Source of the DNA: a virus
Taxonomy: Duplodnaviria > Heunggongvirae > Uroviricota > Caudoviricetes
IMG/VR virus record: IMGVR_UViG_2974695582_000001
Coordinates: 46,918 to 110,917 of that record
Length of the DNA stretch: 64,000 nucleotides
Direction: 5' to 3' (one strand)
Part shown: in pieces, positions 5,901 to 57,983 of the stretch
How positions within the stretch are numbered: position 1 is the stretch's first letter
Layout of the letters: each line of letters begins with the position of its first letter
Translations under genes and position numbers: made by a program
Notes under the pieces: generated by a model
What the model was told of the DNA's origin: nothing
The model's database searches: none
What the model saw: the letters and a program-made list of their open reading frames with translations, nothing else

Positions 5901-6224
5901 TTGGCTCGGTATGTTGAAATCAGTGATTTCGTGCGGGGTTCTTCGAATACATTCGTAAGATATGTATATTCAAAGAATCTGTCCCATGTGACAGAAGGCT
6001 TCTACTATGTAGTTTCCAATCAGACTCGTAAGACGAGGGCTGGAAAGAACATGGCCGACCTAGTCCTTGCGGATGGGGAAAAGAACCTGTATCCTGTACT
6101 AGTGTTCCCACAGATGTTCCACAAGGCTTATGGCTTCTGCAAGGAAGGTGGAGTTATTGAGGCAACTCTAAAGGAGACTCAGGACGGAGACAGTTACTTC
6201 CTTGACGAAGTAATTCCGCGCTAA
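2916..6224 (+). CDS. dnaE: DNA polymerase III alpha subunit (DnaE-type, PHP + pol domains)
   Basis: 1102 aa. N-terminal PHP motif ELHLHDYYSTLDG. GxGSGAGS finger region. Pol III alpha-like length. TTG start inferred. Confidence 0.9.
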   Translation: MLGEKALAYTELHLHDYYSTLDGLNSPDEYMIRAKELGMTHLAQTNHGTLLGHREFQKSAKNAGIVPILGVEAYISPTDRFDRRAKNKRTDGTNVYNHLIILAQGETGMKTLQTLNEKAWTEGFYNKPRIDMELLEEHNDGLIILSGCLNSMLCKAIEAGNVEEAHRIALEFRRILGDRFYIEVQAHNPVYMNQALFEIADKNGIKPVVTSDCHYARKEDLWIEEAMLILSTNPKFSRDFDFTKSQKMDMLERFNYLYPDRVMTFEEIQIYLKSAEEQLTDFSRNGFEREDIVKNTEEIASRIEEYAFHQNLDLLPKPKNGNPDELLEKKARAGLRNRGLDKDPVYVERLEEELEIIKSKDFSTYFLVVANTIKWAKDNEILVGPGRGSGAGSLVNYALGITEVDPIKWGLLFFRFINPERNDFPDIDTDFEDRRRNEIKDYLTRKFKHVASIATVGYFKDKGVVRDAARVFRIDPAETDEALKTIATFEEYQTSKATEGYRKKYPEVEKLANELRGRIRQTGMHAAGIVISKEPIANFAPIETAADPKDKTAPRRALVALDMNEAADLGLIKLDALGLKTLSVMGDAVKMIEQRTGRKIVLTDIPLEDKKVYDMISAGHTKGIFQCEAGPYTGLIMNMGGISSFAELAASNALVRPGAMNTIGAEYIARKNGESPVTYPHEDMKWFTEETYGEILYQEQVMLTMTELAGMSMATADKVRKIIGKKKDVSEFEQYKAEFVEGASKKVSKAVAEKLWHDFEAHAGYSFNKSHAVAYSMISYWTAWLKTYYPIEFVYAMMKNENDKDVRTTYLIEAKRMGVKVKLPHVNHSDLDFSVEEDGIRFGLANIKFISTNLGTKLIEARPYENYAALEAKVTEKGNGLNIRVLKALNAIGAATFADNPKRGDERHFFYEYLSIPAFEIPDMPEGVRNQFTPLSAFREDETSIIMGMVKNVKRGKGWSRIEVVDETGEASFFHKEDTLIAPGNMYAMLIANKRLARYVEISDFVRGSSNTFVRYVYSKNLSHVTEGFYYVVSNQTRKTRAGKNMADLVLADGEKNLYPVLVFPQMFHKAYGFCKEGGVIEATLKETQDGDSYFLDEVIPR

Positions 6225-6263
6225 AATGGCGGCCCTTCGGGGCCGCAAGCTTTAAGGAGGAAA

Positions 6264-20458: not shown

Positions 20459-20589
20459 GCTTGTAAGGAGGTGTTACGATGAGGCGTATCAAAGCGCTAA
20501 TCAAGACACTAGTTGCTTCTAAGTTGTTCAAGGTAGCCCTTGACAAGTGGAAGCAAAGGAAGTATCGTAGTAATAAGTAAGAACAACGT

Positions 20590-20713
20590 TTTCGGGTCGG
20601 CAGGATGAGGGTTATCTAACCTACTATAAATTACACGCAATGGTAATTCCTGGTGGATTCCAGGGAGTGTGGTGACTATAACACTATCTCCCTCGCCAAT
20701 CACATATCCGAAT
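20590..20713 (+). ncRNA. Y RNA-like ncRNA (Ro60-binding type), locus 1
   Basis: 5' ttCGGGTCGGcaGGATGAGGGTTATCTAACc resembles the hY RNA GGUCCGAUGGUAGUGGGUUAUC motif. 3' cCCTCgccaatcaCATATCCGaat can pair with the 5' end. A TTGACA-N-TAGTAA promoter sits at 20550-20578. Confidence 0.5.
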
Positions 20714-20717
20714 ACAT

Positions 20718-20793: not shown

Positions 20794-20897
20794 TTTATGG
20801 GTCGGATGGAAACCTTTATCATAAGTTCAACTCTTATTATTCCCGCTCATGGGAATAGGGCGTGGTGCCCACTGGTTTACTGCAACATACCCATTAT
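20794..20897 (+). ncRNA. Y RNA-like ncRNA, locus 2
   Basis: 5' tttATGGGTCGGATGGaaacctttatca. 3' cATACCCATtat is complementary to the 5' end. Lies between tRNA-Ile and tRNA-Ser. Confidence 0.4.
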
Positions 20898-20984
20898 GGA
20901 AGGTCAATCCGATTGGCGACGGAACTTGTCTTGAAAACAAGCGAGGTGTGAAAGCCCTTAGGAGTTCGACTCTCCTACCTTCCG
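20898..20984 (+). tRNA. tRNA-Ser (anticodon TGA), type II
   Basis: Acceptor ggaaggt/accttcc (perfect). Anticodon stem cttgt/acaag with loop cttgaaa. Long variable arm. T-arm aggag-ttcgact-ctcct. Confidence 0.6.
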
Positions 20985-21167
20985 CTTTACCCTAAGGAGT
21001 AAAATTGACTGAGACAGAAAATGTCGGTCCTTCTTCCTATCAGCTAGCAATCATCCTTGCGCTTCAGAGCAAGCATGTGTATGCTAATACGGTAGATGAG
21101 AATGAGATTGCAAGACGACGTAAGGCAAGCAAGAGGGCGCGACTACAGCGCAGAGTAAATAGAAGGC

Positions 21168-21196
21168 TTGACACGACACGTCGCTCATGATAAGGT
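21168..21196 (+). promoter_or_regulatory. promoter TTGACAC-N17-TGaTAAGGT
   Basis: Same architecture as the 20186 promoter. Precedes tRNA-Asp. Confidence 0.45.
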
Positions 21197-21274
21197 TTTA
21201 ACAGTGCTGAGGGACCGGATGATTTCAGGTAGCACGCTGGTTGGGTATTTCCAGTCCTCACAAAATTCCCACAT

Positions 21275-21351
21275 GCCTCGTGGGGTTGCTAGGTTGTGGC
21301 CACTCCCCTGTCAAGGGAGACATCAGGCGGGTTCGATTCCCGTACGGGGCG
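21275..21351 (+). tRNA. tRNA-Asp (anticodon GTC), atypical D and variable regions
   Basis: Acceptor gcctcgt/acggggc. Anticodon stem ctccc/gggag with loop ctgtcaa. T-arm gcggg-ttcgatt-cccgt. Confidence 0.45.
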
Positions 21352-21376
21352 CTTTCGTAAATGAACAAAAGGAGTT

Positions 21377-21586
21377 ATGCTGATGGCAGCACGAGTTAAG
21401 AAGTTTGACCTTGTTGAGCTTGACAAGGACGGCTGGTTCTCTGCTAAGGTTAGTGGAAAGTTCCGGGGTCTGGTCGAGAAGACTGGACGAAGCAATTACA
21501 CACTTCATCTTGGCAAGGATGATGTAACTAACTTCAAGACTAAGAAGGCTCTTGAGACTTGGCTCACCGAGAAGTGGGCAGTTTAA
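21377..21586 (+). CDS. hypothetical protein
   Basis: 69-aa ORF after AAGGAG SD. Confidence 0.45.
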   Translation: MLMAARVKKFDLVELDKDGWFSAKVSGKFRGLVEKTGRSNYTLHLGKDDVTNFKTKKALETWLTEKWAV

Positions 21587-21610
21587 GTAAAACAACAAAA
21601 TATTGAAAGC

Positions 21611-21683
21611 GTTCGGGTCGGATGCATTCGTTTATCACTCATTGGCGACTAAATAACGATTGCTCTAACATATCCGTGCACAA
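21611..21683 (+). ncRNA. Y RNA-like ncRNA, locus 3 (compact, about 70 nt)
   Basis: 5' gTTCGGGTCGGATGcattcGTTTATCACTCATTGg resembles hY1 GUUAUCUCAAUUG. 3' aaCATATCCGtgcac pairs with the 5' CGGAT. Confidence 0.5.
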
Positions 21684-21687
21684 CTTC

Positions 21688-21849
21688 TAGCCCCTAAAGA
21701 TTTCGGGTCGGATGTTCTTTGGTTAACTCAATTGGAATGAAAAGTTCTGGGTTCGAATCCCAGCGGGTCCACTCTTGGGCCTGTAGTTTAACTGGCAAAA
21801 CTAAAACCCGAGGAACGCTTATATATCCGTGATTATCTTTAGGGGCTAA
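21688..21849 (+). ncRNA. YrlA-like Y RNA with embedded tRNA-like module, locus 4
   Basis: 13-bp terminal stem TAGCCCCTAAAGA/TCTTTAGGGGCTA. Inner TTCGGGTCGGATG...GGTTAACTCAATTGGAATG Y motif. tRNA-like T-arm ctgggttcgaatcccag followed by cgggtcc. 3' partner tATATATCCGtga. Followed by AAGCTT. Confidence 0.55.
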
Positions 21850-21874
21850 GCTTTTGTCTAGAAAAGGAGAGACA

Positions 21875-22060
21875 ATGCCTCGCTACGAAAAGAAGCCCAA
21901 GATTAATGCCAACCTGGTTAAGCGCTATGACGAGGAGTATTACCGAGTGCTTGACGACAACGAAATGATGCTGCTAAAGTGTAAGGGCAATGTTCGGCCT
22001 GAGGGTCGGATGCAGGAAACCAAGACGCATATCATCAGCTATTACATTGAGGTGGATTAA
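21875..22060 (+). CDS. hypothetical protein
   Basis: ATG after AAAAGGAGAG SD. 61 aa. Confidence 0.45.
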   Translation: MPRYEKKPKINANLVKRYDEEYYRVLDDNEMMLLKCKGNVRPEGRMQETKTHIISYYIEVD

Positions 22061-22426
22061 ATGTTGAACTGGCTAGGCCAGGATGTTAAGGTTGGCTCTG
22101 TAGTTTTTCGCGGGGCTCGACAAGGAAACTCTTCCAGTCACAAGATTGGTGTGGTAGAGTCTATTAACGAGAAGACGCGAAAGGCTCGGGTTGCCTGGAA
22201 GTACGAATGTGGTGGTCAGTGGATTCGACCTGATGGGGAAAAGCCCTACTTTGTTGAAGGCCCTTACAAGTTGAGTGACAAGTCAAAGGGGAGTCCTGAC
22301 GTTGGTCCTCTTGTGGTTGTACCTCATGGCCTGCTAGCATCAGCAGAGAACATGATTCAGGGAGTCGAAATGGCCAAGGCACAGAATGTTCCCGCTTCCG
22401 AGTTTGACAACTTTGTTCAAATCTAA
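22061..22426 (+). CDS. hypothetical protein
   Basis: 121-aa ORF. Confidence 0.45.
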   Translation: MLNWLGQDVKVGSVVFRGARQGNSSSHKIGVVESINEKTRKARVAWKYECGGQWIRPDGEKPYFVEGPYKLSDKSKGSPDVGPLVVVPHGLLASAENMIQGVEMAKAQNVPASEFDNFVQI

Positions 22427-22498
22427 TTGAATAGCCGGATGGTCTCCGGCAAGCTTCTAACAACAATATGCCCAGTTTGGGCCGAAAGGATATATAAA

Positions 22499-24115
22499 AT
22501 GTCTAATGCACTTGGTAAGTACGCCGGTAGCCAGAAGGCTGCAAAGGTTGCGACTCCTCAGACAAAGCGGACTCCGGGCCGTACGGATGAGGTAAAGAAC
22601 AACGCGGGCGGGTTTGTGTTTAAGGTTGACGACAAGTCTCGACTTGAGCGTTTCCTTATCCTTGGTACTGATAAGGGTACCTACTACGTTGGTGAGCAGA
22701 AGTTGACGGCTCAGAACGTTTCTTTCCTGAAGAACCTGGTTCAGAAGGATGAGCGTCTGGTTGTGGACACGCTTGTTGACGTTTCTGTAAATGGTCGTGC
22801 GCTTAAGAATTCTCCTGCGCTGTTCGCTCTGGCCACGGTTATGACGGAGGGCAAGGATAAGGCTTACGCTCGTGAGGCCGTTCAGAAGGTTGCTCGTACT
22901 TCTACCCACCTTTTCGAGTACGCACAGTACATCGATGACCTGGGTGGTTGGGGTCGTGCAAAGCGTCGTTCTGTCGCTGAGTGGTACGAGAACAAGTCTC
23001 TGGATACGCTTGCGTATCAGGCTGTTAAGTACCGTCAGAGGAATGGTTGGACGCACCGTGACCTGTTCCGTCTGTCTCACCCTCAGGGTGTGGACCAGGG
23101 TGTTGGTAACTTCATCCTTGGTAAGGACGCAGAGTCTGAGGTGGAAATTCTTAAGGGCTTCGCTGAGATGCAGTCTGCGACTTCGGTCAAGGACGTTATC
23201 AAGACGCTGGAGACTTTTAAGAACCTTCCGTGGGAGACCATCCCTACTCAGTTCCTCAAGGACGTGAAGGTGTGGAAGACTCTCTTCTACAATGGTCAGC
23301 TTCGTGGCCAGGCTCTCATTCGCAACATCACTCGACTCGCTCGAATTGGTGCGTTTGATGACATGGTTTTCGCAACTGACTACGCGAATGCAATTGCTAA
23401 CCAGGAAATGATTCAGAAGACTCGTCTTCACCCAATCAACTTCCTGAATGCGGTTGTTGTTCATGAGTACGGTCAGATTGACCGTAACGGCTACAGCATG
23501 TGGAGTGCCGGACGTAAGAAGGATTGGAAGTCTAATGGAAAGATTGTGGATGCTCTCAATGAGGGATTCCACATGGCGTTCAAGGCTGTCGAGCCTTCTG
23601 GCAAGAGGACTCTTGTTGCGACTGACGTTTCTGGCTCAATGAGTCAGAGCGCTATCGGACTCGACCTTTCTTGTGCTCAGGTTTCTGCGGCTGTTGCTAT
23701 GACGGTTGCTCGCACCGAGCCTTACAGTGACATTGTTGGCTTCTCTAGCAGCATTGTTGACTTGGGTATTACCGCAAAGAGTTCTTTTGCCGACGCAATG
23801 CGTAAGGTGAGTAACAGGAACTTCGGTGGTACGGATGCGGCTGCTGCAATTAAGTACGCTGACCAGAAGGGAATTCAGGTTGACACCTTCGTCGTTATCA
23901 CTGATAACGAGACGTGGGGCGGAAGCCAGAAGCCTTTCCAGGCACTTAAGCAGTACCGTCAGAAGACCGGAATCGATGCGCGTCTAGCGGTTCTTGGTGT
24001 TGCGTCTACGGACTTCAGCATCGCTGACCCAACTGACCGTGGTATGATGGACTTCGTTGGTTTCGATGCCAATGCGCCAAGGGCTCTTGCAGACTTCAGC
24101 GCTGGTCGTATCTGA
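22499..24115 (+). CDS. rsr: Ro60/TROVE-domain ribonucleoprotein (Rsr ortholog) with C-terminal vWA/MIDAS
   Basis: Direct similarity to the Ro60 TROVE core: RLERFLILGTDKGTYYVGEQKL versus human [22 protein letters not shown], plus PALFALA. vWA MIDAS motif VATDVSGSMS. About 538 aa from ATG 22499. Confidence 0.9.
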   Translation: MSNALGKYAGSQKAAKVATPQTKRTPGRTDEVKNNAGGFVFKVDDKSRLERFLILGTDKGTYYVGEQKLTAQNVSFLKNLVQKDERLVVDTLVDVSVNGRALKNSPALFALATVMTEGKDKAYAREAVQKVARTSTHLFEYAQYIDDLGGWGRAKRRSVAEWYENKSLDTLAYQAVKYRQRNGWTHRDLFRLSHPQGVDQGVGNFILGKDAESEVEILKGFAEMQSATSVKDVIKTLETFKNLPWETIPTQFLKDVKVWKTLFYNGQLRGQALIRNITRLARIGAFDDMVFATDYANAIANQEMIQKTRLHPINFLNAVVVHEYGQIDRNGYSMWSAGRKKDWKSNGKIVDALNEGFHMAFKAVEPSGKRTLVATDVSGSMSQSAIGLDLSCAQVSAAVAMTVARTEPYSDIVGFSSSIVDLGITAKSSFADAMRKVSNRNFGGTDAAAAIKYADQKGIQVDTFVVITDNETWGGSQKPFQALKQYRQKTGIDARLAVLGVASTDFSIADPTDRGMMDFVGFDANAPRALADFSAGRI

Positions 24116-24167
24116 AACACTGCCCCCTCTTCGGAGGGGGCAAGCTTGTTTAAGGAGAAACATTTGA

Positions 24168-25311: not shown

Positions 25312-25405
25312 CATTAGCTGGGTCAGATGATAGTATGTAGTTAGTTGGTCGGGTAGCAGTGGTACTGCTCATAAAGTAGTCCCCTTTGGGACATGCCTGA
25401 CTTAT

Positions 25406-25478: not shown

Positions 25479-25482
25479 CTTT

Positions 25483-25556
25483 GCCCCTGTATTGGCCCGG
25501 TCTTCTAAACCAGAGGTGCATAACGGATGATGCTGGTTCGAATCCAGTCGGGGGTG
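25483..25556 (+). ncRNA. tRNA-like element (acceptor + T-arm, non-canonical D/anticodon region)
   Basis: Acceptor gcccctg/cgggggt. T-arm gctgg-ttcgaat-ccagt. No canonical anticodon arm could be folded. Confidence 0.3.
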
Positions 25557-30415: not shown

Positions 30416-30720
30416 CTTCAGTTCTGGTAAAAATCCAGTCTGAGTTTATACAGAGTTTGGAAGGTAAGCCGGTTCGATTCCGGCAGACTGATGGGTCAGG
30501 GCGCGGTTCGAGTCCGCTATATAAATATGGGTGCAAATAGGGTAGCTCCCGCCGAGTCAGGTTCGAATCCTGGCACTCTGTATAAAGCTTACAAGACACG
30601 GGGGCTTGGCCCGTCCTCCAATCATGAGTCTTGGGTCTCAGTCCAATCGAGATTTAGAGTTAACGGGCTTGCCAGGGGTAGCTTGGTTTCGACTTTGCTG
30701 GATGACATATGAACGCAACC
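30416..30720 (+). other. cluster of degenerate tRNA fragments / T-arm-like hairpins (no intact cloverleaf)
   Basis: Four GGTTCGA(A/T/G)TCC T-arm hairpins, at 30470, 30497, 30560 and about 30690. One has a perfect 7-bp acceptor-like pairing (cagtctg/cagactg) but only about 25 nt between acceptor and T-arm. Confidence 0.4.
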
Positions 30721-30883
30721 CTTCTTGGTCAAAGAAGTAAAACGGGCCAAAACAATAAATGCAAACTCTAAGAATGCATCTGCATACGCCCTTGCGGCGT
30801 AAGAGCCGGGTTTGTCGTTGACCTAGGAACAGAACAACGACTAGACAAAATGTGTAGATAATGTGTAAGACCCTTCAGTGTGA

Positions 30884-35770: not shown

Positions 35771-36232
35771 ATGACAGAGAAAAGATGTAGCTTTCCAGAT
35801 TGCGAATACCCCTTCCTAGCGAAGGGGTATTGCAACAATCACTATCAGCAATCAAGGTCTGGTAGAGAGCTTGTTCCAGTAAGGCCAAGGTCAAAAAATG
35901 GTTCTGGAACGATTAACACAGATGGCTATAGAATCGTCTATAAGCCTGGCCATCCCAATTGCCAATCAAATGGTAGGATTGCCGAACATCGTTGGGTCAT
36001 GTCGGAAAGTCTTGGAAGACCTCTTGAGGAGTATGAAGAGGTTCATCACAAGAATGGTGACAGACTTGACAATCGCCTTGAGAATCTGGAACTATGGGTT
36101 CGTAGGCAGCCGCCTGGACAACGGGCGGAAGACTTGCTAGAGTGGGCATACGAAATCATTAGACGATATGGAGATGAAAATGACTCACGTTTCAGCAATC
36201 TTTTCAGTGGACGACCTGAACAAGGCAATTGA
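35771..36232 (+). CDS. HNH homing endonuclease (HNH_3-like)
   Basis: GYRIVYKPGHP...GRIAEHRWVM...EVHHKNGDRLDNRLENLEL. Confidence 0.65.
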   Translation: MTEKRCSFPDCEYPFLAKGYCNNHYQQSRSGRELVPVRPRSKNGSGTINTDGYRIVYKPGHPNCQSNGRIAEHRWVMSESLGRPLEEYEEVHHKNGDRLDNRLENLELWVRRQPPGQRAEDLLEWAYEIIRRYGDENDSRFSNLFSGRPEQGN

Positions 36233-37247
36233 GGACGGTTGGGTCAGGGTCCAGACGAATGAGGATAATACCCTCTCTATTTACAATTATACAGAAGCGA
36301 GCCAGTATAAGCGTTACTGGAATGATGTGACGCTGAATTGTCGGGGTTTGATTCTCGACAGCTACAATCACATTGTGGCACGTCCTTGGAAGAAGTTCTT
36401 CAATTTCGGTGAGCGTCCGCTTCTGTTTTCTACGGATGACCCAGTTGAGGTAACGGATAAGAAGGATGGCTCATTGGGTATTCTTTACCAGCACCCAATG
36501 ACTGGTGATTACCGAATTGCAACTCGTGGCTCTTTTCTTTCTGACCAGGCAATTCACGCAACAAACGTCTGGGATAACAAGTACAGCCACATTGCAGACC
36601 CGTGGCACGGAGTAACCTTCTTGTTTGAGATTGTGTACCCTGAGAACCGCATTGTTTTGGATTATGGTGAGACTGATGACCTTATCCTTCTTGGTGCAGT
36701 TCAGAATCAGTACGGTTGGTACTACGGTCCCAACGAGGCTGCGGGTATGCTCAACTGGACTGGCCCGGTCACAGAGGTCTTTGAGTACCGCACCACGAAC
36801 GACTGCTTCAAGGTGCATCGCTCAAATGCTGAGGGTCTGGTAATTCGGTGCGGTAGTGAGATGGTCAAGTTGAAGCAGGAGGACTACGTAGCTTTGCACA
36901 AGCTAGTTACGGGTCTGAACGAGCGGGCTGTGTGGGAGCGCTTGATGGCAGGTGAGAGTCGTGATACTATCTGTTCATCGCTTCCGGATGAGTTCCACGG
37001 ATTTGTTGACAAGGTGGCCGATGAGCTGGAGACTCAGTTCAAGGAGATTTACCACTCTTCTCACGTGAGTTACTGCGAGATTCTTAACAAGATGCCTGGA
37101 AAGTCGGCACTTCCTAAGAATGAGTGGCGTAAGTTGTTTGCATCATATGCGGTAAAGATGCCCAACTACGACCTTATATTCAATTACTTGGACAACCGTC
37201 CGGTTGCTGAGTCAATTTGGAAGATGATTCGTCCGAAGGGTGAGTAA
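36180..37247 (+). CDS. ATP-dependent RNA ligase, Rnl1 (T4 RnlA)-like
   Basis: Nucleotidyltransferase motif I VTDKKDGSLGILY (KxDGSL as in T4 Rnl1). 355 aa. A Pnk-like kinase lies downstream. Confidence 0.6.
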   Translation: MTHVSAIFSVDDLNKAIEDGWVRVQTNEDNTLSIYNYTEASQYKRYWNDVTLNCRGLILDSYNHIVARPWKKFFNFGERPLLFSTDDPVEVTDKKDGSLGILYQHPMTGDYRIATRGSFLSDQAIHATNVWDNKYSHIADPWHGVTFLFEIVYPENRIVLDYGETDDLILLGAVQNQYGWYYGPNEAAGMLNWTGPVTEVFEYRTTNDCFKVHRSNAEGLVIRCGSEMVKLKQEDYVALHKLVTGLNERAVWERLMAGESRDTICSSLPDEFHGFVDKVADELETQFKEIYHSSHVSYCEILNKMPGKSALPKNEWRKLFASYAVKMPNYDLIFNYLDNRPVAESIWKMIRPKGE

Positions 37248-37406: not shown

Positions 37407-37679
37407 ATGATGGATTACGAAAAGATTATTGATGGATATAACGACCTTCGTGAAACATGTCTTGTAATTGCTAAGCTTAACGATGAATTGATGGGTCCAG
37501 ATAGATGGCTGAAGTTTGCCATTCAGGATTCTGACATCACGCTGATGTTTACAGAGCGAGGCATCGTGTGCTATGGTAGTGCTTACACGACACAGACTAT
37601 GGACAACGAACACTTCAGTTTCATGATTCCGTTTGAATACATAGAGGAGTTTGAGGCAAATGCTAGAGCTGGTGATTAA
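37407..37679 (+). CDS. hypothetical protein
   Basis: 90-aa ORF after GGAGG. Confidence 0.45.
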   Translation: MMDYEKIIDGYNDLRETCLVIAKLNDELMGPDRWLKFAIQDSDITLMFTERGIVCYGSAYTTQTMDNEHFSFMIPFEYIEEFEANARAGD

Positions 37680-38085
37680 CCGGGGGATTCCGGGAAGCGG
37701 TAAGTCAACGTATGCTCGCAAGTGGGTATTCGATGGAACTCCGCTCAATCGTCGTGCTAGAGTTAACCGTGATGACATCCGTAAGCAGCTTTACGGAGTT
37801 GACTTCGGGGTTCCAGTTGAGGAGACTGCTGTAACTGCTGTCGAGTACGCTATGATTCGCTCTTTGCTTGAGCGCGGAGTGTCTGTTATTGTTGACGACT
37901 GCAACATCAGTCAGCGATACATTACTGCATTTACAAAGATTGCAAAGGAGTTTGATGCTGAGGTGAGGGTAAACCTTATCGATGTTGAGCTTGATGTTGC
38001 AATCCAGCGTAATCAGGGCAGGGAGCGTTTCGTTCCTGTCCATGTAATTGAGGACATGTATAGGCGACTTCAGGAGCAACTGTGA
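37651..38085 (+). CDS. polynucleotide kinase-like P-loop kinase (Pnk/zeta-toxin fold)
   Basis: Walker A GIPGSGKST. Walker B-like IVDDCN. 144 aa. Confidence 0.55.
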   Translation: MRQMLELVINRGIPGSGKSTYARKWVFDGTPLNRRARVNRDDIRKQLYGVDFGVPVEETAVTAVEYAMIRSLLERGVSVIVDDCNISQRYITAFTKIAKEFDAEVRVNLIDVELDVAIQRNQGRERFVPVHVIEDMYRRLQEQL

Positions 38086-46894: not shown

Positions 46895-46967
46895 GATTCG
46901 TTAGCTCAGTTGGCAGAGCGGGGAACTTTTAATTCCACGGTCCTCGGTTCGAGTCCGAGACGAATCA
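46895..46967 (+). tRNA. tRNA-Lys (anticodon TTT)
   Basis: Acceptor gattcgt/acgaatc. D tagctcagttggcagagc. Loop cttttaa. T-arm ctcgg-ttcgagt-ccgag. Confidence 0.6.
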
Positions 46968-51112: not shown

Positions 51113-51121
51113 AGATATATC

Positions 51122-51224
51122 GGGTCGGACGGATAGGGTTATCTAACAATCAATTGATGATGAGCCTTCGGGCAACCCTGCGGCGGGTATAGCCGCATCT
51201 CCCTTCCTCAACATATCCGATGTA
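51122..51224 (+). ncRNA. Y RNA-like ncRNA, locus 5
   Basis: atCGGGTCGGACGGATAGGGTTATCTAACAATCAATTGATGatgag resembles hY4 GGUCCGAUGGUAGUGGGUUAUC and hY1 ...AAUUGAUUG. Has an internal gcc-ttcg-ggc hairpin. 3' ACATATCCGATG pairs with the 5' TCGGA. Confidence 0.55.
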
Positions 51225-51227
51225 TTT

Positions 51228-51298
51228 GCGGGTGTAGTTTAATGGTAGAACAACAGACTTCCACTCTGTTAGCGGGGGTTCGATTCCCCCTACCCGCT
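51228..51298 (+). tRNA. tRNA-Gly (anticodon TCC)
   Basis: Acceptor gcgggtg/tacccgc. D tagtttaatggtagaac. Anticodon stem acaga/tctgt with loop cttccac. T-arm ggggg-ttcgatt-ccccc. Confidence 0.6.
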
Positions 51299-55134: not shown

Positions 55135-55191
55135 AGAGCCGGGCCGAAAGGCCCAAGCTTCCTACCAACTAAACAGAAAAGGATTAGGAAA

Positions 55192-57335: not shown

Positions 57336-57983
57336 ATGCGTGAGTATTCAAAGACCGATAACCTTTACAAGCGCAACCCGAAGAAGAAGTCTGAGCTGCT
57401 TGTTGGAGAGTACACCCGTCCTGAGTTCGCTCTTATCAATTCTTGGTGGGTTACTGAGAAGGTTGACGGTACCAACGTACGTCTTTGGTTTGACAAGGAC
57501 GAGAACACCAATTATGGTGGTCGCACAGACAATGCACAGTTCAGCCCGGTTCAGCAAGAGTTTATGTCTAACCTTGTTGATTCTATCAAGGAGGATGCGG
57601 TAAGTCTTATTCATCGTCATGGATTGAATGAGCTGCTTATCTTCGGTGAGCTTTATGGACCGAAGATTCTTTCTGGCGGGAATTATTCTGACAGTCTAGA
57701 CTTTCGAGCGTTTGACATGATGGTCAATAACCGGGTATGGTTGAATCCTGATTCGGTGAACCAGAATGCGTCAGACCTTGGTCTGAAGATGGTTCCTAAT
57801 TTTGGAATGATGACCACTGCTCAGATTTTCTTGATGGTTGCGGGTGGCTTTAAGTCCACCTTTGCGAAGAACCCTGAGTTTGATGCTGAGGGTGTAATTG
57901 CTCAACCTCCAGTTAATCTTTATGACCAGCGTGGTGAGCGTGTTAAGTTCAAGTTGAAGACAAAGGATTTGAGGCACGTCTAA
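57336..57983 (+). CDS. RNA ligase Rnl2-like nucleotidyltransferase domain protein
   Basis: N-terminal YSKTDNLY...WVTEKVDGTNVRLWF parallels T4 Rnl2 YSSLENHY...REKIHGTNFSL, with a KxDG motif I. 215 aa (no C-terminal domain). Confidence 0.5.
   Translation: MREYSKTDNLYKRNPKKKSELLVGEYTRPEFALINSWWVTEKVDGTNVRLWFDKDENTNYGGRTDNAQFSPVQQEFMSNLVDSIKEDAVSLIHRHGLNELLIFGELYGPKILSGGNYSDSLDFRAFDMMVNNRVWLNPDSVNQNASDLGLKMVPNFGMMTTAQIFLMVAGGFKSTFAKNPEFDAEGVIAQPPVNLYDQRGERVKFKLKTKDLRHV

Follow-up and report, generated by a model that had tools for sequence, protein, structure and literature searches.

A Ro60/Rsr orthologue and candidate Y RNAs in the tRNA island of Streptomyces phage Comrade

The Ro locus

The window analyzed here is a stretch of 64,000 nucleotides (nt) from a Caudoviricetes record of IMG/VR (IMGVR_UViG_2974695582_000001, positions 46,918 to 110,917). 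At positions 22499-24115 of its plus strand lies a gene which, judged by sequence family and modelled fold, encodes a genuine orthologue of the Ro60/Rsr protein. The 1,689 bases around this open reading frame match the genome of Streptomyces phage Comrade (MH651172.1 / NC_048728.1) at 100% identity. Comrade is a member of Stanwilliamsviridae, genus Gilsonvirus, cluster BE2. Window positions equal positions in the Comrade record minus 46,917, and the reading frame coincides with the coding sequence of Comrade gene 103 (MH651172.1 69416-71032), which is labelled "Ro-like RNA binding protein". It starts with an ATG at 22499, ends with a TGA at 24113-24115, and is preceded by the ribosome-binding site AAAGGA. 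The product, gp103, has 538 residues, a mass of 59.3 kDa, and a pI of 9.35. Its predicted TROVE HEAT-repeat ring covers approximately residues 30-320 and would be closed by a vWA/MIDAS domain at residues 370-533.

The gene was described in a preliminary, sequence-only description as lying inside a tRNA island next to Y-RNA-like loci. The island was located: 31 tRNA genes and one tmRNA gene are found on the plus strand between 19372 and 51677. The adjoining loci also proved real, as judged from a shared module signature, a sub-threshold match to the YrlA model, and covariation. Five such modules were found in Comrade, named E1, E2, E3, E4, and E7.

The gene itself is not new, being known and already annotated in Comrade. 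NCBI holds the identical protein under a Ro-like name, and "Ro-like RNA binding protein" is listed among the functions common across BE2 phages in a 2026 announcement (PMC13191466). A phage Ro60 was reported in 2003 (Pedulla 2003, as relayed by PMC4201824), phage Y-like RNAs followed in 2014 (PMC4201824), and in 2025 a structure was published for a phage Ro60, together with two Yrl RNAs and the binding of host PNPase (PMC12135203). By tblastn, homologues of gp103 were found in 359 of 50,697 phage records (about 0.7%), in 355 of them at full length. The hosts are Mycobacterium (212 records), Streptomyces (115), and a few Gordonia, Microbacterium, and others; almost all of these phages are large actinobacteriophages, and nearly all of the genes had been annotated Ro-like beforehand. 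The statement that Ro60 is rare in phages stands only as a fraction of records. The gene is annotated as Ro-like here and has been described as typical of BE2 phages.

The gp103 protein

Membership of gp103 in the Ro60 family is indicated by profile searches. The TROVE profile (Pfam PF05731) matches residues 32-319 (E 2.6e-38, 132.8 bits against a cut-off of 23). The C-terminal vWA/MIDAS module is recognized by PF25045 (vWA_Ro60) with an E value of 3.2e-56 and 190.2 bits (cut-off 27.7). Both peptides first quoted as resembling human Ro60 were recovered in the translation; RLERFLILGTDKGTYYVGEQKL lies at residue 48, PALFALA at 106. gp103 is placed in PHROG 850 'RNA-binding protein' (E 2.5e-99), and its matches in the PDB are full-length and collinear, namely to Deinococcus radiodurans Rsr (2nvo, E 2e-99, residues 19-537) and to Xenopus Ro60 (1yvp, E 1.3e-88, residues 26-534). 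The MIDAS motif, defined as DxSxS...T...D (PMC11277228), is complete (D376-x-S378-x-S380...T445...D469), and each of its residues is invariant in 35 phage homologues.

An AlphaFold2 model built from the alignment of these 35 homologues reached a predicted local distance difference test score (pLDDT) of 86.3 and a predicted template-modelling score (pTM) of 0.84. It superposes on Xenopus and human Ro60 (1yvp, 2i91, 9nep) with template-modelling (TM) scores of 0.86-0.90 and root-mean-square deviations of 2.4-3.4 Å over approximately 540 columns. The scores fall to 0.67-0.72 against D. radiodurans Rsr and to 0.54-0.64 against the Ro60 of Thermus phage phiLo (9kop/9l5y), the only solved phage Ro60, with which gp103 shares 17% identity. 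In the model, the alpha-helical repeats are predicted to close into a ring with the vWA domain as its cap. Two outcomes had been named as fatal to the Ro60 assignment, a TROVE search without a significant match and a predicted structure without the HEAT-repeat ring; both were checked and neither was found.

A conserved basic RNA-binding surface had also been proposed as a test, and the expected residues are in place. K177, R181, and H194 of gp103 align to K170, R174, and H187 of Xenopus Ro60 and are invariant across the 35-homologue alignment; basic residues of the cavity and of the outer surface are likewise conserved. Roles for K170 and R174 in Xenopus Ro60 were reportedly described by Fuchs and colleagues in 2006. 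Y RNA binding by Ro60 is reportedly abolished by the H187S substitution (PMC11277228).

A family of Y-RNA-like modules

The modules share a signature which reads GGGUCGG...UUAUC...AUAUCC at the RNA level. Using a strict form of it (GGGTCG, then 40-200 nt, then [A/C/T]ATA[T/C]CC), five occurrences were counted on the plus strand of the window, against 0.77 expected per strand. A looser scan (GGGTC...A[TC]CC plus two closing pairs) was uninformative, as its 34 matches against 16.5 expected were at background level. Four exact copies of the 10-mer GGGTCGGATG are present in the window, always on the plus strand, from 20799 to 22012. Copies of GGGTC[G/A]GATG at 22003 (within gp101) and at 25320 were set aside as chance, because they are not conserved in relatives and lack the remainder of the signature.

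Three of the plus-strand modules are interleaved with tRNA genes. E1 (20588-20716) ends 2 nt before tRNA-Ile (20718) and has a promoter-like site directly 5' of it (20540-20568). E2 (20794-20897) fills the whole spacer between the end of tRNA-Ile (20793) and the start of tRNA-Ser (20898), and is homologous to module M3 of Gilson-type phages. E7 (51114-51227), a paralogue of E1, ends directly before tRNA-Gly(tcc) at 51228. It is present in some relatives only, being 85-96% conserved in Patelgo, Moab, and Francob and 79% similar to the E1 module of Faust. Compensatory change was seen at five pairs among E1 and E7 homologues. The short module E3 (21609-21686, plus strand) lies just 5' of E4, with GGGUCGGAUG...UUAUC on its 5' side and AUAUCCG on its 3' side. 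It is conserved in 8 phages with an invariant outer helix and, by eye, an inner stem that is retained with different sequences in two clades. No covariation was counted by the tool in the alignment of E3 homologues, because MAFFT misaligns the inner stem between the clades. E3 is the weakest of the five modules. As E1, E2, E3, and E7 contain no tRNA-like domain, they are regarded as YrlB-like.

Further comparison used 41 modules from 9 phages and one metagenomic contig. In 38 of the 41, the distance from GGGUC to UUAUC or UUAAC is constant at +17/+18 nt, and the closing base pairs vary between paralogues while complementarity is kept. The published 5' motif of bacterial Y RNAs is GNCGAAN0-1G (Chen et al., 2014, PMC4201824). 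Homologous modules contain it exactly in Sham (GUCGAAAG), Daubenski (GUCGAAAG), and Coruscant (GUCGAAG and GCCGAAGG), and in E1 it is interrupted (GUCGGCAGGAUG). Coruscant and Daubenski also have modules 5' of Ro, and Bxz1 and Magritte each have three upstream of Ro with motif variants of their own. In Gilson-type relatives, two extra modules containing a T arm (M1 and M2) are found between tRNA-Ile and tRNA-Ser. They are carried by Gilson (1076-1478 of locus L002), Jada, Forrest, Kenrey, and Patelgo, and have been lost from Comrade. Candidate Y RNAs number five in Comrade and six near Ro in Gilson-type relatives. A pattern scan of IMG/VR was too permissive, as most of its 120 matching stretches were chance or ordinary tRNAs; only 5 loci (L030, L054, L061, L088, and L044) gave usable homologues.

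The YrlA-like candidate E4

E4 (21689-21849, plus strand, 161 nt) is the module closest in form to YrlA. It lies in a 288-nt gap without annotation (21587-21874) between genes 100 and 101 of the Comrade record, is followed by AAGCUU, and ends 650 nt short of the Ro ATG, on the Ro strand. This arrangement of E4 and Ro is syntenic in 8 Loccivirinae phages. A local search with the Rfam YrlA model gave a sub-threshold match at 21742-21802 (28.2 bits, E 3e-4) covering a T arm, an acceptor-like hairpin, and a D arm. Other sub-threshold scores on this model are 30.8 bits for Gilson M1, which aligns along its entire length (model positions 1-114), and 43.5 bits for the IMG/VR locus L044. At gathering thresholds, Rfam detected only the tRNAs and the tmRNA in the window.

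The fold of E4 has a minimum free energy z score of -5.0 and is composed of three parts. A terminal stem of 13-14 base pairs (bp) leads into a helix similar to a Ro-binding site (CGGGU/AUCCG), next to which are a single bulged C and, on the opposite strand, a 5-nt bulge. Beyond it a multiloop holds a permuted tRNA-like core made of the T arm, the acceptor-like hairpin, and the D arm. Among the five modules, only E4 has its arms in the permuted tRNA order of the YrlA type. A consensus structure of 44 pairs was obtained from 11 homologues, taken from 8 phage genomes and 3 IMG/VR contigs; 98.8% of its cells are paired, and 8 pairs are changed on both sides. None of 500 shuffles was as good, and slid controls gave at most 2. 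By part, covariation was seen at three pairs of the T arm, one of the D arm, and one of the acceptor-like stem.

In Sham (ON645339.1) the tRNA-like core of the E4 homologue (locus L003, 2252-2313) is annotated as a 62-nt 'tRNA-Ser(cga)'. In the same record 'tRNA-Leu(ctg)' and 'tRNA-Pro(cca)' stand where relatives have tRNA-Gln(ctg) and tRNA-Trp(cca), the anticodon having been named as a codon. These labels are probably annotation errors.

It could be argued that the modules have nothing to do with Ro and are tRNA-derived debris, processing spacers, or terminators with a chance motif. They abut tRNAs, E4 ends in the 'hairpin + AAGCUU' element found throughout the genome, its T arm is tRNA-like enough for the core to have been called a tRNA in one GenBank record, and the Rfam scores are below threshold. 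However, GGGUCG...UUAUC...AUAUCC is foreign to tRNAs, and E1, E2, E3, and E7 have no tRNA-like part. Moreover, closing pairs co-vary between paralogues, the modules track Ro across phage families, and at 65 bacterial Ro loci a matching 5'-strand motif was found 70 times on the Ro strand versus 5 times on the other. Such an origin is hence very improbable. The fixed spacing of UUAUC, the covarying closing pairs, the exact motif in relatives, and the modules of Bxz1 and Magritte are the reasons for reading the modules as Y RNAs of the YrlA/YrlB kind and the Rfam model as too narrow. The five modules are probably new members of this already known kind of RNA, missing from databases, and probably the RNA partners of gp103.

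A 5'-strand pattern in bacterial and human Y RNAs

The spacing between the 5' motif and UUAUC was also followed in 65 bacterial Ro loci from many phyla. GNCG[A/G]A-N8-12-UUA[U/C]C had 70 occurrences on the Ro strand and 5 on its opposite, compared to 9.7 for the two strands combined in shuffles, and the gap between CGRA and UUAYC peaked sharply at 9 nt (62 cases). A stricter pattern, GG[G/T]C[C/G]G[A/G][A/T]G-N7-[G/T]TTA[T/C]C, was matched at 29 sites of the Ro strand and nowhere on the opposite strand, against 0.13 in shuffled sequence. Among the phage modules, E4 of Gilson and of Sham conform to it, as does one from Coruscant, and those of Comrade fall short by a single base or position. The pattern also fits the 5' ends of human Y1 and Y4. 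The matching strings are found verbatim in human small-RNA data (PMC5839159). A functional importance has been reported for the UUAUC loop motif of vertebrate Y RNAs and nematode sbRNAs (PMC4726728), and at the UUAYC position of bacterial Y RNAs only a conserved 'YUAY' had been noted (Chen et al., 2014, PMC4201824). The bacterial 'YUAY' and the metazoan UUAUC are here linked at identical spacing. In an ungapped comparison, E4 matched human Y1 nt 5-31 at 19 of 27 positions, the best site in the window; as shuffles reach 21, this raw score is not significant by itself, and it is the spacing-constrained motif test that carries weight.

A second element of interest is the Ro leader. A hairpin, GCCCA-GUU-UGGGC, runs into GGGCCGAAAG at 22470-22488 (plus strand), 11-29 nt before the Ro ATG. 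GGGCCGAAAG, formed where CGAAAGG follows the hairpin, lies 11-20 nt before the ATG and fits GNCGAAN0-1G. The core of the leader (hairpin GCCCA-NNN-UGGGC) is invariant in nine phages of two subfamilies, while its flanks and the position of the ribosome-binding site vary. The Ro leader of Magritte contains that phage's own module motif, AGGCUGA. The leader hairpin and GGGCCGAAAG form a candidate Ro-binding site, possibly for autoregulation. The other exact copy of GGGCCGAAAG, at 55141, was rejected, being part of a GAAA-loop hairpin (GGGCC-GAAA-GGCCC) and not a Ro-type motif.

Taken together, a single 22-nt 5'-strand unit, GG[G/U]C[C/G]G[A/G][A/U]G-N7-[G/U]UUA[U/C]C, may be common to the phage modules, bacterial Y RNAs, and human Y1 and Y4 with their UUAUC loop, and the leader may hold a minimal copy of the Ro site (hairpin and GGGCCGAAAG) through which free Ro would repress its own translation. 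This proposal is tentative and, on balance, rather doubtful. If true, UUAUC would not be peculiar to animals but would belong to an ancient unit for the recognition or assembly of Ro60 and Y RNA.

Among the 65 loci is CAINGU010000031.1 (110 kb), which is labelled as an 'uncultured cyanobacterium' metagenome-assembled genome. It encodes a Ro 62% identical to that of Comrade with three A+T-rich Y-like modules upstream, and has the appearance of a contig from a Stanwilliamsviridae-like phage that was binned with a bacterial genome.

Flanking elements and neighboring genes

Ro is bracketed by two "hairpin + AAGCUU" elements on the plus strand. The first (22434-22456), GCCGGA...UCCGGC followed by AAGCUU, lies between gp102 and the Ro leader. 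The second (24121-24147) begins 6 nt past the Ro stop codon and is a terminator-like hairpin of 9 bp, 7 of them G-C, followed by AAGCUUGUUU. AAGCTT occurs 47 times in the window against approximately 17 expected from composition, and a stable G+C-rich hairpin immediately precedes at least 27 of these copies. Examples are found at 1737, 6247, 22451, 24142, 40044, 55155, and 62376, and the terminal stem of E4 uses the element as do both Ro flanks. The combination looks like genome-wide intergenic punctuation, serving as a terminator or processing site.

Directly upstream of Ro is gp102 (22061-22426, plus strand), a protein of 121 residues which belongs to phrog_2596 and has a weak SH3-like match in Pfam. 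A gp102 gene stands next to Ro in both Stanwilliamsviridae subfamilies, Loccivirinae and Boydwoodruffvirinae, with 35-36% identity to the neighbors in Daubenski and Coruscant. No gp102 homologue adjoins Ro in Bxz1 or Magritte. gp102 may be a lineage-specific partner of Ro. For gp101, gp104, and gp105, no relatives were found in Pfam, PHROG, or the PDB.

A tRNA-like sequence lies downstream, at 25482-25556 on the plus strand, 3 nt past tRNA-Arg(gcg), with acceptor-like strands CCCCUG/CGGGGG and the T arm GCUGGUUCGAAUCCAGU. It was not called by ARAGORN and reached only 23 bits on the Rfam tRNA-Sec model; Gilson has a comparable sub-threshold tRNA match at 6172-6245 of locus L002. tRNA-Ser(tga) (20898-20985) scored 47.1 on the tRNA-Sec model, where the gathering score is 47, and the tmRNA region (30560-30802) gave a marginal 'permuted tmRNA' match (49.5 against 47). 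The tRNA-Sec and permuted tmRNA matches are probably cross-talk between models and not real features.

Proposed function

It is quite likely that gp103 and the modules form a Ro-Y RNA particle for RNA quality control or turnover during infection, with host PNPase as the likely tethered enzyme. The modules would be transcribed together with the tRNAs, and E1, E2, and E7 would be freed by tRNA-end processing because they abut tRNA genes. The outer surface of Ro (the His194/Lys177/Arg181 patch) would then bind the GGGU-C-GG / AUAUCC helix of the modules. The variable domain of the RNA, which is tRNA-like in E4, would tether the ring to a host partner, most likely the 3'-5' exoribonuclease PNPase by the precedent of D. 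radiodurans, Salmonella, and Thermus phage phiLo. Finally, 3' ends of structured or misfolded RNAs would be threaded through the ring for degradation or quality control at a time when approximately 31 tRNAs and the tmRNA are being expressed from the phage. There is a precedent for such binding by a phage Ro, which in vitro binds two phage-encoded Yrl RNAs and host PNPase (PMC12135203); by analogy, the Comrade particle may bind host PNPase as well.

Several observations weigh against this interpretation. gp103 scored 437.4 bits on the NCBIfam equivalog 'RNA-binding protein Rsr', for which the cut-off is 900, and its sequence places it as a member of the family and not as an equivalog of the curated bacterial Rsr set. 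The YrlA (RF02553) gathering score of 69 bits is reached by no module (28 bits in Comrade). The Comrade modules read GUCGGAUG or GUCGGACG, one substitution off GNCGAAN0-1G, and the single-sequence fold of E3 is no better than that of a shuffled sequence. Furthermore, no PNPase gene is annotated in the window, and the host enzyme would therefore be needed.

Alternatively, Ro could serve mainly as a chaperone or quality-control factor for phage tRNA and tmRNA precursors, capturing misfolded ones by way of its central cavity, with the modules only gating the cavity and no dedicated nuclease involved. Such a role would suit a Ro gene amid an island of 31 tRNAs and a tmRNA, with three modules physically within tRNA spacers. 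The Ro60 cavity accepts misfolded non-coding RNAs with 3' tails (PMC11277228), and its basic residues are conserved in gp103 together with those of the outer surface. On the other hand, Ro is coupled to an exonuclease through a Y RNA in D. radiodurans and S. Typhimurium (PMC4201824) and, in vitro, in phiLo (PMC12135203), and E4 retains an elaborate, conserved tRNA-like effector domain, which suggests a partner. This chaperone role is possible but clearly less likely than the nuclease-tethered particle proposed above.

Enzymes for RNA repair are also encoded on the plus strand of the window. An Rnl1-type RNA ligase is found at 36207-37247, a kinase annotated as polynucleotide kinase (Pfam AAA_33) at 37660-38085, and a second RNA ligase at 57336-57983. 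In combination with Ro and with the tRNA and tmRNA genes, the three resemble a broad toolkit for RNA repair and maintenance. The presence of these enzymes in one window raises another reading, in which Ro-stabilized tRNA-like Y RNAs act as decoys or sensors for host nucleases that target tRNAs, in concert with the phage ligases and kinase. E4 imitates a tRNA in its T, D, and acceptor parts, and in Salmonella rsr is part of the RNA-repair operon rsr-yrlBA-rtcBA (PMC7790460, PMC9879122). However, the repair genes of Comrade lie 12-33 kb away and do not share an operon with Ro, and E4 has no mimic of the anticodon loop because the Ro-binding stem replaces the anticodon arm. An RNA-damage or anti-defence function of this kind is considered unlikely, and a Ro-Y RNA particle in RNA quality control or turnover is the preferred interpretation.

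Significance

The observation made in the preliminary description is confirmed, and its interpretation as Ro60 is supported. The Ro gene itself brings nothing new: Bxz1 already provided a phage Ro60, Y-like RNAs of phages date from 2014, and the structure of a phage Ro was added in 2025. Comrade is a plaque-forming phage with a genetically tractable host and combines Ro with a compact, diversified set of candidate Y RNAs, making it a convenient system in which to study the role of a Ro-Y RNA particle in infection. It could show which Y RNA domain recruits which partner. The Y-RNA-like genes deserve to be added to the annotations of BE-cluster phages. The E4 core is wrongly labelled as a tRNA in at least one GenBank entry.

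Comparison with known systems

Mycobacteriophages of the Bxz1 type (cluster C) resemble Comrade closely in their organization. Bxz1 is a large actinobacteriophage with many tRNAs, a tmRNA, and a full-length TROVE and vWA protein (gp220), and several Y-like modules, one with T and D arms, lie directly upstream of Ro on the same strand. Its Ro-like protein with YrlA-like RNAs has been described (Pedulla 2003, as relayed by PMC4201824; Chen et al., 2014). The two Ro proteins are only 40% identical, however, and the Bxz1 motif is AGGCCGA...GGUUACC...CAUGUCU, compared to GGGUCGG...UUAUC...AUAUCC in Comrade. Bxz1 has no gp102 homologue next to Ro. In Comrade, tRNA genes alternate with three of the modules, and one module lies 27 kb away.

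Thermus phage phiLo (9KOP, 9L5Y; PMC12135203) likewise encodes a Ro ring with more than one Y-like RNA upstream. Its Yrl1 and Yrl2 were found through a CGAA motif, and host PNPase was bound in vitro (PMC12135203). The phiLo Ro60 is nevertheless very distant from that of Comrade, with 17% identity and a TM score of 0.54-0.64.

The bacterial systems of S. Typhimurium (Rsr-YrlA/YrlB) and D. radiodurans (Rsr-Yrn1-PNPase) are built on the same two-domain protein (2nvo, E 2e-99). As in Comrade, a Y RNA with a Ro-binding stem and a tRNA-like effector domain is accompanied by shorter Y RNAs without it. Unlike bacterial Rsr and YrlA, the Comrade components fall below the NCBIfam equivalog cut-off and the Rfam YrlA gathering score. 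Moreover, no rtcBA operon is adjacent in Comrade, and the module is found in five copies, some inside tRNA operons.

The vertebrate Ro60-Y RNA ribonucleoprotein differs from the Comrade modules in the effector domains of its RNAs, which are unrelated, and the Rfam metazoan Y_RNA model found no match at E <= 10 in 21560-21880. Like E4, the vertebrate Y RNA site (PMC4726728) is a helix in which one strand has a single bulged C and the other a larger bulge, and Y1 and Y4 have the 5'-strand pattern in common with the phage modules. Vertebrate Ro60 (1YVP) is also the best structural match of gp103, with the equivalents of H187, K170, and R174 conserved, and the Comrade Ro is far closer to Xenopus and human Ro60 (34% identity, TM 0.86-0.90) than to the Ro60 of phiLo.

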